A DNA stretch of 63,597 nucleotides, the filler included, from Collodictyon triciliatum (Eukaryota), in the NCBI GenBank assembly GCA_043381765.1. It is 21 parts of 21 records of this genome, joined end to end, with 100 filler letters (N's around TTAATTAATTAA, not from the genome) between each part and the next. Parts side by side here need not be neighbours in the genome. Positions count along the whole stretch, not along the records: positions 18,696 to 21,709 come from JBHJMP010007925.1; 20 more parts are not named here. One strand, written 5' to 3'. Shown here piece by piece: positions 19,990-20,461 of the stretch. The position numbers and the translations under genes were made by a program. Each line of letters begins with the position of its first letter. Position 1 is the stretch's first letter. The notes under the pieces are model-generated. The model was not told the origin of the DNA and searched no databases. It worked only from the letters and a program-made list of their open reading frames with translations.

Positions 19990-20461
19990 TGAAAGTGAGA
20001 TTTACAAAGAATGCATGTGCTAAACACATGCAGAACGCGGTTTATGAATTCCCTTCGAGTGCTCATCGGTATCAATCCTGAGGTGTCCGCTCAAGGGCGA
20101 ACGGTGCAGCGATCATTGATCCGATAAGTGCAATCCTCACACATAAAGACTGAGGGTTGCGCCACGCAGGTGGCCGATGTCGGACATGTGTGAGTATTGC
20201 TCTTTGAGGACCCGTAGGGCGAGCGATCAAGCGAGTCAATTAGCGCGTAACCAGCCCGCGGACACTGAAAGGATTGATTTCCGATAGTGCCAGCTCGCAA
20301 GGGAATTCATCGCGGGCTGCTAATCCAAATTCCCCTTTGCTGTGATTGGAGGTCGAAGCGTAGCGTAGCGCAGCGTAGTTTAATCAAGCCGAGGAAAACG
20401 CATCTGCGCTGGCGCTTTCCCTCATGATTAAACACATCTACTCTTGATACTTTTTTTTTTT
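19990..20461 (+). ncRNA. Candidate large structured non-coding RNA of unknown family
   Basis: GC-rich island in very AT-rich flanks with no credible ORF. Nested complementary arms: 20044-55/20299-310, 20071-79/20270-78, 20083-90/20258-65, 20130-44/20186-200. Flanking hairpins: 20012-32 and 20378-433. Ends in T11. Strand inferred from G-U pairs and the T run. Confidence 0.55.

Follow-up and report, generated by a model that had tools for sequence, protein, structure and literature searches.

What is a GC-rich island of some 440 bases doing in otherwise very AT-rich DNA of the protist Collodictyon triciliatum (assembly GCA_043381765.1)? A preliminary description, made from the letters alone, took it for an unassigned and highly structured non-coding RNA (ncRNA) gene of the RNA polymerase III (Pol III) type, and named a divergent telomerase RNA and a fragment of ribosomal DNA (rDNA) spacer as alternatives. 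Here, we conclude that the plus strand of 19985–20421 probably carries a conserved structured ncRNA gene, and that the best single mechanism for this gene, put forward tentatively, is membership of the telomerase RNA family.

The window analysed is a stretch of 63,597 bases, a string of unrelated contigs of ~3 kb, and only the contig that bears the island is usable as context (table 1). The window is compared with environmental contigs that match the locus (L001–L004, of which L002 is 99.7% identical to L004) and with sequencing runs (X1, X5, X15 and X17). The stretch is present in 20 runs from 13 studies; metatranscriptomes make up six of the 20 runs and come from three studies. The assembly gap is bridged by L002, among others, in which 1–273 corresponds to 20325–20599 and 640–1319 to 20965–21643. 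Taking best-identity matches, the proteins closest to two genes of the assembly come from Diphylleia rotans (CRuMs; 71% and 52% identity), and by this measure the host is related to Diphylleia. The plasmid and phage collections searched gave no match, which leaves a vector or bacterial origin of the island unsupported. Elsewhere in the window, a 590-aa ORF lies at 528–2297, for which a homologue search came back empty.

Table 1. Features of the locus and its surroundings, in window coordinates.
Feature	Position	Strand	Details
Assembly contig bearing the GC block	18696–21709		Rest of window is other ~3-kb contigs; N44-TTAATTAATTAA-N44 linkers at ~3.1 kb spacing
Upstream repeat region	18990–19730	+	Four exact GGGTTGGGGTT copies (19092, 19386, 19605, 19700) and a variant near 19008
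37-nt tandem repeat, 2.5 copies	19853–19944		Just upstream of block; raised depth in all DNA runs (115–240 versus ~50 in X5)
Conserved GC-rich block, proposed ncRNA body	19985–20421	+	437 bases, 52% GC; conservation versus diverging flanks; z −5.85
5′ hairpin, 8 bp, loop CTAAA	20012–20032	+	Competing pairing of 20007–19 with 3′ tail 20433–45 when 19985–20465 is folded
Irregular rod, 291 nt	20030–20320	+	Perfect 4–12 bp helices, asymmetric loops; junction 20205–34; tip GCCAC-GCAG-GTGGC 20161–74
Linker, candidate telomerase template	20320–20330	+	Directly 3′ of rod-closing helix; from alignment and raw sequences of the loci
3′ hairpin, ~75 nt	20349–20423	+	Conserved block ends at hairpin foot
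Less conserved tail ending in T11	20424–20461	+	Possible Pol III terminator; T9–T10 in L002–L004, T5 in L001
Second short conserved block	20476–20523		Downstream of T-run; 2/48 positions (20493, 20512) differ between copies
Assembly gap, N365	20600–20964		Bridged by three environmental contigs; contains start of 18-nt repeat array
18-nt (36/72/90-nt) repeat array	20977–21696		Downstream of block

The island is real: its GC content of 52% stands against 26–28% in the flanks (fractions of 0.519 in 19985–20421, 0.276 in 19485–19984 and 0.264 in 20422–20599). Its limits differ slightly from the 19990–20461 first proposed, in that natural variation sets the conserved unit at ~19985–20421; in run X17, positions 19722–19984 are replaced by 49 other letters and the match resumes from 19985. 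No second copy of the block lies elsewhere in the window. A coding exon is ruled out, the ORFs of the block reaching at most 75 aa and the best Pfam match being no better than E 0.03. The preliminary description saw none of the hallmarks of several known RNA classes, and this reading is upheld by the Rfam covariance models, which give no gathering match across the whole window. Between 19800 and 20599 they return only TtnuCD4 (E 4.2) and SraB (E 5.9), both on the minus strand, and the block of L001, L003 and L004 matches nothing. In agreement with Rfam, a search by eye for the conserved boxes of RNase P/MRP, SRP, U3 and H/ACA RNAs, using consensus sequences, yields nothing convincing. A tRNA search finds none, and the 30-mer at the apex of the rod (20160–89) has no match in metagenome, prokaryote-genome and viral contigs.

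The plus strand folds to a minimum free energy (MFE) of −180.7 kcal/mol, compared with −143.6 ± 5.4 kcal/mol for shuffled sequences (z −6.83), and none of 100 shuffles folds as well. The rod alone reaches z −8.46, and five GC-rich 437-nt segments of the same window, used as controls, range from −0.9 to +1.99; the block thus folds beyond chance. Chance folding or a faulty assembly has nothing in its favour beyond the fragmentary state of the assembly; this explanation is refuted by the shuffles and by the independent environmental DNA and RNA contigs that carry the same sequence, and its probability is negligible.

Most of the helices first proposed appear in the MFE fold, namely 20044–55/20299–310, 20065–69/20281–85, 20071–79/20270–78, 20082–90/20258–66 (originally 20083–90/20258–65), 20130–34 plus 20136–44 with 20186–94 plus 20196–200, the cap 20161–65/20170–74 with its GCAG loop and, in the fold of 19990–20461, the 5′ hairpin. 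Two helices do not. The pairing of TTGATC 20116–21 with GATCAA 20225–30 is replaced by that of 20115–20 with 20235–40, and the 3′ stem 20378–86/20425–33, complementary on paper, is absent from the fold and broken by uncompensated variants (20428 T>C in run X15; 20429 T>G in L001, X5 and X17). Folded by itself, the 3′ domain (20315–20461) gains nothing over its shuffles (z 0.08 to 0.61). Aligned with each other, the two arms of the rod match in 98 columns, mismatch in 29 and are gapped in 33. Its variant 20293 G>A converts a G–U into an A–U pair, while 20291 C>A sits in a bulge. Evidence on the strand is thin, since the minus strand also folds (z −5.34) and G–U pairs favour the plus strand merely by five to two.

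Folding on both strands would also be expected of an element that acts as DNA: a palindromic GC island of a complex tandem repeat, either an rDNA spacer with duplicated promoter islands or a subtelomeric repeat, serving as a protein-binding site, promoter or origin. We consider this improbable. The two arms agree at only ~61%; the helices are retained and the loops are asymmetric, a pattern more in keeping with pairing in an RNA than with a cruciform in DNA. The sole rod variant at a paired position also keeps its pair.

The fold, together with conservation amid divergent flanks, bears out the earlier proposal of a selected structured element. The environmental contigs carry the same locus plus a tandem second copy of the block. 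Between the window and the second copy in L001, two of 254 block positions differ, versus 48 of 183 flank columns (Fisher p 6e-18), a comparison that covers the 3′ half of the block, as all four matching contigs stop at or before the rod tip. Both block differences fall in the linker, a weakly paired stretch that follows the rod-closing helix on its 3′ side; 20422–50 holds three substitutions between the copies. An 18-nt-type array in L001 joins the second block to a 97% copy of 19402–19940, which indicates a tandem arrangement, and the two islands lie ~1.2 kb apart with 18-nt, 21-nt and 37-nt repeat arrays between them.

Read depth shows the block to be low in copy number relative to its flanks. 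In DNA run X5, block depth equals flank depth, the neighbouring 37-nt repeat being two to five times deeper, which argues against a dispersed MITE. The same run adds evidence of constraint on the block: its 3′ flank comes in two variants, one of depth 26.7 and one of 27.2, that fork from a single block contig (depth 49.6). A MITE or foldback transposon copy would explain the long imperfect inverted repeat, as well as the direct repeat TGCTAA at 20018–23 and 20318–23 and the contigs of RNA run X15 that lack the intervening 300 nt. However, the palindrome ends (20030/20320) have no target-site duplication, the window holds no other copy, the rod-less form appears in neither of two DNA runs, and both copies sit at the same place in homologous flanks. 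A mobile origin is accordingly very unlikely.

Whether the block is transcribed as a discrete RNA, and by which polymerase, must be judged from its ends and from the RNA libraries. The oligo-T run at 20451–61 is present as described, and a T-run after the block is kept (T5–T11) in five of five sequences; no run of four or more T occurs inside the block, and the first one follows 30 nt on. The assignment to Pol III drawn from it is weak: the flanks abound in T-runs (21 runs of at least five T in the 1,289 nt upstream), the block ends 30 nt earlier and the second copy keeps only T5. The window contains no other Pol III gene with which an upstream promoter element could be compared. In X15, judged from contigs only, the block has depth 54 and the flanks 25–50, and a contig of X17 extends ~90 nt upstream of 19985; this flat depth and upstream extension mark neither discrete ends nor enrichment, and carried-over DNA may contribute. 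In X17, moreover, the block depth of 31 is not the sum of its two flank variants (28.9 and 26). Flat depth across block and flanks would also suit repeat read-through of a multi-copy DNA element, for which presence in so many runs and studies is easier to explain. X15 also contains a joint that skips the rod, 20017>20318, with 6 nt of microhomology, which is found in neither of two DNA runs. Reverse transcriptase skips very stable hairpins in this way, and the occurrence of the joint in the RNA run only is counted for an ncRNA gene and for telomerase RNA. Other joints were set aside. The X15 joint 20021>20328 is part of a contig of 1,297 nt whose likeness is 88% across 68 nt; its sides are short (22–30 nt) at an 80% threshold, and it may belong to another locus or organism. 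The X1 joints 20093>20206 and 20237>20386 have sides of 20–24 nt as well as GC-rich loose ends and are taken as chance matches of other organisms.

The linker holds the main clue to function. The window copy has CTAATCCAAAT at this site and L004 has CTAATCCTAAT; L001 and L003 share CTAACCCTAAT, a canonical TTAGGG-type telomerase template. In L001 and L003, the match to (CCCTAA)n extends over 10 nt at 20320–29 and is seen with both flank types; as the state common to both, the canonical word is probably ancestral. Relative to it, L004 has one change and the window copy two. The mean unpaired probability is 0.66 for 20321–35, versus 0.18–0.19 for the rod base, and local hairpins at the linker reach only −5.4 to −6.0 kcal/mol (z ~0). 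In the predicted fold, the closing helices of the rod run to 20320 and give way to the linker at 20320/21, which would place a boundary-type helix just 5′ of the candidate template. Telomerase RNA, first listed as an alternative with CTAACCT at 19983–89 as a weak template, thus gains support, but at a different site: the heptamer is present but is rejected as a template, being only 7 nt long and lying across the boundary of the conserved block, with its position 19988 variable in X15.

The same linker supplies the case for a structured RNA gene with some other lineage-specific function, such as a scaffold or a hairpin precursor cut into smaller RNAs, the CTAACCCTAA of the relatives then being a chance match in an unconstrained linker. 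Structure and conservation apply equally to such an RNA, and the linker contains the sole two sites that vary within the block's 3′ half, as would be expected of a free loop. Three linker alleles occur among copies whose flanks are 97–99% alike, which suits a free loop and weakens the template reading: a working telomerase template should not vary so, and the window version is without repeat register. The four runs X1, X5, X15 and X17 show no difference from the window at 20324 or 20327. A precursor might use the distal hairpin 20126–20204, with 19-nt arms that are 89% complementary, although the longest perfect helix in the rod, at 12 bp, makes a poor Dicer substrate. Against a chance match stands the expectation, by our own arithmetic, of ~0.005 such 10-nt words in 437 nt, and not one 9- or 10-mer of (CCCTAA)n occurs among the window's 61,392 non-N bases. 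The word also lies exactly where a template would, beside the closing helix, and its occurrence with both flank types makes it probably ancestral. Another function is on balance somewhat unlikely.

The surroundings of the block can be read in two ways. In the upstream region, the copies of GGGTTGGGGTT lie within G-rich tracts of TCAGGG/TTGGGG-like sequence, GGGTCAGGGTTGGGGTT among them, and 21/41/62-nt repeats together with a (TGTCAG)12 array are interspersed; the 37-nt repeat, deeper in all DNA runs, is evidently repeated elsewhere. The 18-nt array is not a coding repeat, its longest ORF being 150 aa. Telomere-variant-like tracts in the flanks and a pair of islands separated by short arrays, a layout resembling that of an rDNA spacer, would both fit a DNA-level element. 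Against it, no rRNA gene or telomere array occurs on the contig or the environmental contigs (the rRNA scan took in L001, L003 and L004, ~4.5 kb, contigs that end in repeats), the window as a whole holds no telomere array, and there are just two flank variants of equal depth rather than the many of a large array.

Known systems offer further comparisons. In ribosomal DNA spacers of Xenopus, the 'Bam islands' are spacer-promoter islands between short-repeat arrays; they share with this locus duplicated, conserved and GC-richer islands, short tandem arrays between them and faster-diverging spacers, but the present island is a 291-nt hairpin, unlike promoters, and is linked to no rRNA gene in the ~4.5 kb of sequence examined. 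SRP (7SL) RNA is the classic Pol III rod of ~300 nt, and the block resembles it in three ways: its irregular rod is about as long, the tip loop (GCAG) is of the GNAR type and a T-run lies downstream. In contrast to SRP RNA, its far end lacks the forked helix 6/helix 8 and there are extra domains 3′ of the rod; the SRP models of Rfam give no match at E ≤ 10. The 7SK RNA is similar in size (~330–450 nt), with a long 5′ rod in which GATC/GATC pairing is possible, a 3′ hairpin and a U-run. To our knowledge, however, 7SK is confined to animals, the host here is by its protein matches a protist near Diphylleia, and the Rfam 7SK models do not match.

Telomerase RNA offers several likenesses. In the relatives, a single-stranded telomere-complementary word lies directly 3′ of a helix, and in yeast TLC1 the base helix of a long arm bounds the template. 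The block is a strongly structured, GC-richer, RNA-sized unit that is free of T4 and followed by a T-run, and it has no sequence similarity to the telomerase RNAs of other lineages, as is usual for the family; the telomerase models of Rfam give no match to the locus at E ≤ 10. It differs from known telomerase RNAs in that its candidate template word is mutated in the window copy and polymorphic among copies, and in that it is a tandem duplicate inside a satellite-like repeat, between 18-, 21- and 37-nt arrays, an unusual setting for a telomerase RNA gene. Neither a pseudoknot nor a stem-terminus element finds support; the only candidate pseudoknot stem, 20378–86/20425–33, is the one broken by the variants at 20428 and 20429, although a weaker pseudoknot may have been missed. 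Nor could a triple helix or a CR4/5-type element be supported. The candidate template lies ~330 nt from the 5′ end, and a reported search for Pol III telomerase RNAs sought the template within 200 nt of the upstream element (PMC12133305), so this distance counts against a telomerase RNA. Telomerase RNA of the Pol III type is reported from ciliates, plants and other Diaphoretickes (PMC8287931, PMC12133305). Among CRuMs, the flagellate Mantamonas is reported to have TTAGGG telomeres, with both ends capped in 59 of 78 contigs (PMC10492846); a 2026 preprint on single-cell genomes of Collodictyon and Diphylleia makes no mention of telomeres.

Taken as a telomerase RNA, the locus would work as follows. 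The gene would span 19985–20421 on the plus strand, probably extended to the T-run at 20451–61, and give a highly structured RNA of ~440–470 nt; the window gene would be one of two tandem copies. The rod would form an arm whose closing helices (GCAG 20030–33/CTGC 20317–20, CGCG/CGCG and the 12-bp 20044–55/20299–310) set the template boundary, and the weakly paired linker that follows would be the template. The 3′ hairpin and the U-rich end may serve folding and protein binding. The CTAACCCTAAT linker of the two related alleles would specify TTAGGG repeats, and the window copy, with CTAATCCAAAT and its two changes, would be a template-altered paralogue or allele rather than a working canonical template. 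Support comes from the 10-nt telomere word, its position 3′ of the closing helix, its weak pairing, the TTAGGG repeats of a CRuMs relative and the TCAGGG/TTGGGG tracts of the flanks; the mutated template of the window copy, the lack of a supported pseudoknot, the flat RNA depth and the satellite-like tandem setting weaken it. We offer as a possibility, and with some doubt, a telomerase RNA gene family of CRuMs with a U-run end, a template bounded by a giant 291-nt hairpin arm and two tandem copies, of which the window's has a drifted template in an otherwise unchanged RNA. A bolder variant, based on the joint 20017>20318 of the RNA run, would have the rod removed from the RNA, leaving a ciliate-sized molecule of ~170 nt with its template ~30 nt from the 5′ end.

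Because telomerase RNAs diverge so strongly, most eukaryote supergroups have none identified, and the literature searched describes none for CRuMs. In the current picture, as reported, the Pol III type is that of Diaphoretickes and Hymenoptera, and the Pol II type that of opisthokonts and trypanosomes (PMC9841428, PMC12133305). With a candidate in Amorphea's sister lineage, the ancestral state of telomerase RNA biogenesis would become open to direct test, and natural alleles already delimit the boundaries of the block. Should the terminator prove real, the range of Pol III-type telomerase RNA would extend to the sister group of Amorphea, with a bearing on which route of biogenesis is ancestral among eukaryotes. 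Even if it is not a telomerase RNA, the block is a rare candidate for a large, strongly folded and conserved RNA outside the known families, in an orphan lineage of eukaryotes.

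The window is a chain of about 20 unrelated contigs of ~3.0 kb, sorted by length and joined every ~3.1 kb by a sequence of the form N44-TTAATTAATTAA-N44 (e.g. 3018-3117, 18596-18695 and 21710-21809). The contigs are unrelated and artificially joined, so features are not readable across the joints; most contigs have microsatellite ends. The assembly is eukaryotic: it uses the standard code, has ~33% GC and carries many simple repeats in its introns. The exon of a zinc alcohol dehydrogenase has its best-identity relative in a Diphylleia rotans transcript (52%) and finds a longer Phytophthora protein at a lower E-value (40% identity). 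The SLC13/TrkA-C transporter ORF, which resembles the SAC1 sulfur-acclimation protein of green algae, is 71% identical to a D. rotans transcript (best identity) and 40% to Volvocales. From these two genes only, we take the host to be related to Diphylleia (CRuMs). A 590-aa open frame at 528-2297 (+ strand) has many predicted membrane-like segments; it falls in no Pfam family, and none of the candidates scored proved homologous.

The conserved block at 19985-20421 has a GC content of 51.9%, against 27.6% in the preceding 500 nt and 26.4% in the following 178 nt. The preliminary description proposed that DNA at 19990-20461 specifies an RNA folding into an irregular rod, and nearly every helix of that rod is recovered in the minimum-free-energy (MFE) fold, with two exceptions. 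The MFE fold pairs 20115-20 with 20235-40 instead of 20116-21 with 20225-30, and the proposed 3′ hairpin (20378-86/20425-33) is absent from it and is broken by a T>C variant at 20428 in one RNA run. The unusual stability of the region is borne out by comparison with shuffled sequences (+ strand, -180.7 kcal/mol against -143.6 +/- 5.4, z -6.83; - strand, z -5.34). The conserved block gives z -5.85 and the rod alone (20030-20320) z -8.46, while five GC-rich controls of 437 nt from elsewhere in the window range from -0.9 to +1.99. The 3′ domain alone (20315-20461) has a z of 0.08, so the rod accounts for all of the excess structure. Chance structure or artefact is extremely improbable, as none of 100 shuffles folded as well on the + strand and the block recurs in public runs and environmental contigs. 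When one arm of the rod is aligned to the other, 98 columns match, 29 mismatch and 33 are gapped; helices of 4-12 bp are kept, with asymmetric, unalignable loops between them, and G-U pairs favour the + strand without reaching significance (5 to 2).

Rfam returned no gathering matches across the whole window, just two matches in 19800-20599 (E > 4, both on the minus strand) and none to the block in three related contigs, and ARAGORN found no tRNA. Coding sequence was rejected, as no reading frame exceeds 75 aa and Pfam gave nothing better than E 0.03; a plasmid or phage origin is not supported, no similarity to either having been found.

The region 19900-20599 is present in 20 of the 24 listed public runs (13 studies), which derive from lake, freshwater, wastewater, bioreactor, runoff and subsurface metagenomes; six runs containing it, in three studies, are metatranscriptomes. 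Four public runs, two of DNA (X1 and X5) and two of RNA (X15 and X17), were compared with 19700-20599 as contigs only, and cover it entirely at 95-100% likeness. In X5 the block is a single contig of depth 49.6, which forks at ~20392-20421 into two 3′ flanks (26.7 and 27.2) and also forks upstream (23.7 and 19.3-28); a 37-nt repeat beside the block is 115-240 deep. These forks and depths indicate two versions of the block with different flanks. A MITE or foldback element is very unlikely, since the block depth is unlike that of a dispersed high-copy element and the window holds no second copy. In X17, 49 other letters replace 19722-19984 and the match resumes at 19985, while the second 3′ flank type departs from the window at 20422, thereby delimiting the conserved unit as 19985-20421. 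Few variants fall inside it across the four runs, and the window's G at 19995 is either private to its source or an error of the assembly.

A 25-mer of the 3′ hairpin matched four environmental contigs (L001-L004); a 30-mer of the rod tip had no match in three collections. L002-L004 represent the window's own locus (98-99% identical over 20301-20599), span the N gap and continue into 18-nt repeats. L001 is the second version, identical to the window over 20168-20421 save at 20324 and 20327; past 20421 it diverges, runs through ~470 nt of 18-nt repeats and enters a 97% copy of 19402-19940. Judged from this arrangement, the two versions would be tandem neighbours ~1.2 kb apart, unless L001 is a chimeric assembly. 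When the window is aligned with L001, counting only from 20168, where L001 sequence is available, 2 of 254 block positions differ, against 48 of 183 flank columns (Fisher p 6e-18). This contrast is the main evidence that the block may be functional; gene conversion limited to the block is the alternative. A second short conserved stretch (20476-20523, 48 nt), downstream of the T-run, has 2 differences between copies in surroundings that differ by about one quarter, and contains a small palindrome, CTAC-GACTGT-GTAG.

Features of the block, its variants and its surroundings (window positions unless the Position column names a contig)
Feature	Position	Strand	Remarks
Contig with block	18696-21709		Interrupted by 365 N (20600-20964); sole genomic context for block
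SLC13-type transporter, two TrkA-C domains	25269-27824	-	Intron-less 851-aa ORF
Rod-closing helix	GCAG 20030-33 / CTGC 20317-20	+	MFE fold
GGGTTGGGGTT	19092, 19386, 19605, 19700 (exact, n=4); variant near 19008		All in one orientation
18-nt unit array, consensus near GACGATGAATATCAACAT	20977-21696; L004 1-1500; L001 537-1003		36/72/90-nt higher orders
Variant C>A	19988		X15
Variant G>A	19995		All four compared runs (window G, runs A)
Variant C>A	20291		X17; sits in bulge
Variant G>A	20293		X17; G-U pair to A-U
Variant T>C	20428		X15; disrupts proposed 3′ hairpin
Linker, window	20320-30		CTAATCCAAAT; window-type flank
Linker, L004	20320-30		CTAATCCTAAT; window-type flank
Linker, L003	20320-30		CTAACCCTAAT; window-type flank
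Linker, L001	20320-30		CTAACCCTAAT; second-type flank
Linker, L002	from 20325		Begins with CCTAAT; window-type flank

The two block positions separating the window from L001 both fall in a linker directly 3′ of the rod-closing helix. The word CTAACCCTAA, a 10-nt stretch of (CCCTAA)n, is that required of a telomerase RNA for making TTAGGG repeats and is the core of the vertebrate telomerase template. On both strands together, the window (61,392 bases once N are excluded) holds only three 8-mers of (CCCTAA)n and no 9- or 10-mer. The chance of such a word in 437 nt is ~0.005, or a few times higher if other telomere types are admitted. Another structured RNA, bearing the word by chance, is a rival reading that we hold only slightly less likely than a telomerase RNA. 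The word is common to both flank types and L003 is, by its flank states at 20500 and 20588, the window-type allele nearest L001, so the word is probably the older state; the path to the window allele was probably C>T first, then T>A. Pairing in the linker is weak (the unpaired probability averages 0.66 over 20321-35, against 0.18-0.19 at the rod base), and local hairpins of all three alleles have z-scores near 0, at -5.4 to -6.0 kcal/mol. In the upstream flank, the window has CTCTAACCCTG at 19656-19664 where L001 has CTCTAATCCTG (reverse strand, ~278-286), a C/T difference within a CTAACCC word that mirrors the linker's with the states swapped.

We consider the block to be probably the body of a structured non-coding RNA and, tentatively, a member of the telomerase RNA family, the most likely single mechanism. 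The base helix of the long hairpin arm would halt reverse transcription at the 5′ edge of the template, the single-stranded linker would serve as template, and the 3′ hairpin and U-rich end would bind proteins. Such a layout is like that of yeast TLC1, where a long arm bounds the template with its base. The flanks hold G-rich tracts of the TCAGGG/TTGGGG type, common variants of TTAGGG. The proposed U-run end is like those described for ciliate and plant telomerase RNAs (PMC12133305, PMC8287931, PMC9841428), and Mantamonas sphyraenae, a CRuMs relative, is described as having TTAGGG telomeres (PMC10492846). Against a telomerase RNA, the linker lacks the repeat register in the window copy and in all four compared runs, and L004 has a third state; a working template is not expected to vary among copies whose flanks are 97-99% alike. 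The window's copy would thus be a duplicate with an altered template, in which selection or conversion has kept the remainder alike. Neither the fold nor natural variants support a pseudoknot or stem-terminus element, the candidate template would lie ~330 nt from the 5′ end, and the gene is set in a satellite-like tandem repeat.

A (TGTCAG)12 array and repeats of 21, 41 and 62 nt lie among the upstream tracts (18990-19730; GGGTCAGGGTTGGGGTT), which resemble degenerate telomere repeats in sequence and might fold into G-quadruplexes. The 18-nt array varies in length between copies and has no ORF above 150 aa. This repeat setting, together with good folding of both strands, RNA depth that is flat over block and flanks, and wide recovery from metagenomes, would suit an island with a role at the DNA level inside a complex tandem repeat, such as a subtelomeric repeat or an rDNA spacer whose duplicated islands alternate with short-repeat arrays. 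Such an island is nonetheless unlikely, as kept helices with free loops are an RNA-like pattern and ~4.5 kb contain no rRNA gene or telomere array.

In RNA libraries X15 and X17 the block is not enriched over its flanks and no ends are seen (X15 depth 54, against 25-50 in flanks); the X17 contig extends ~90 nt upstream of the block, and DNA carry-over may contribute. A possible RNA-specific sign is a joint of 20017 to 20318, with 6 nt of microhomology and depth 20, which occurs in X15 and in neither DNA run nor the other RNA run; it rests on a single contig with a 22-nt side, and is compatible with reverse transcriptase skipping a stable hairpin or with rod removal. Pol III transcription, originally proposed from the oligo-T run, is possible but weak: the first T-run, 30 nt past the block, is kept as T5-T11 in five of five sequences and the block contains no T4, but upstream runs of at least five T are common (21 in 1,289 nt) and the stretch leading up to the T-run, with 3 changes in 29 nt, is conserved only in part.

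In the literature searched, a telomerase RNA of CRuMs is not described (supplementary tables may list the group's telomere motifs), and CRuMs appear alongside telomerase RNA only in a figure legend. If the telomerase reading is true, the block would be relevant to which route of telomerase RNA biogenesis, by Pol II or by Pol III, is the ancestral one; otherwise, an orphan lineage still has a large RNA candidate that is folded, conserved and without a family.
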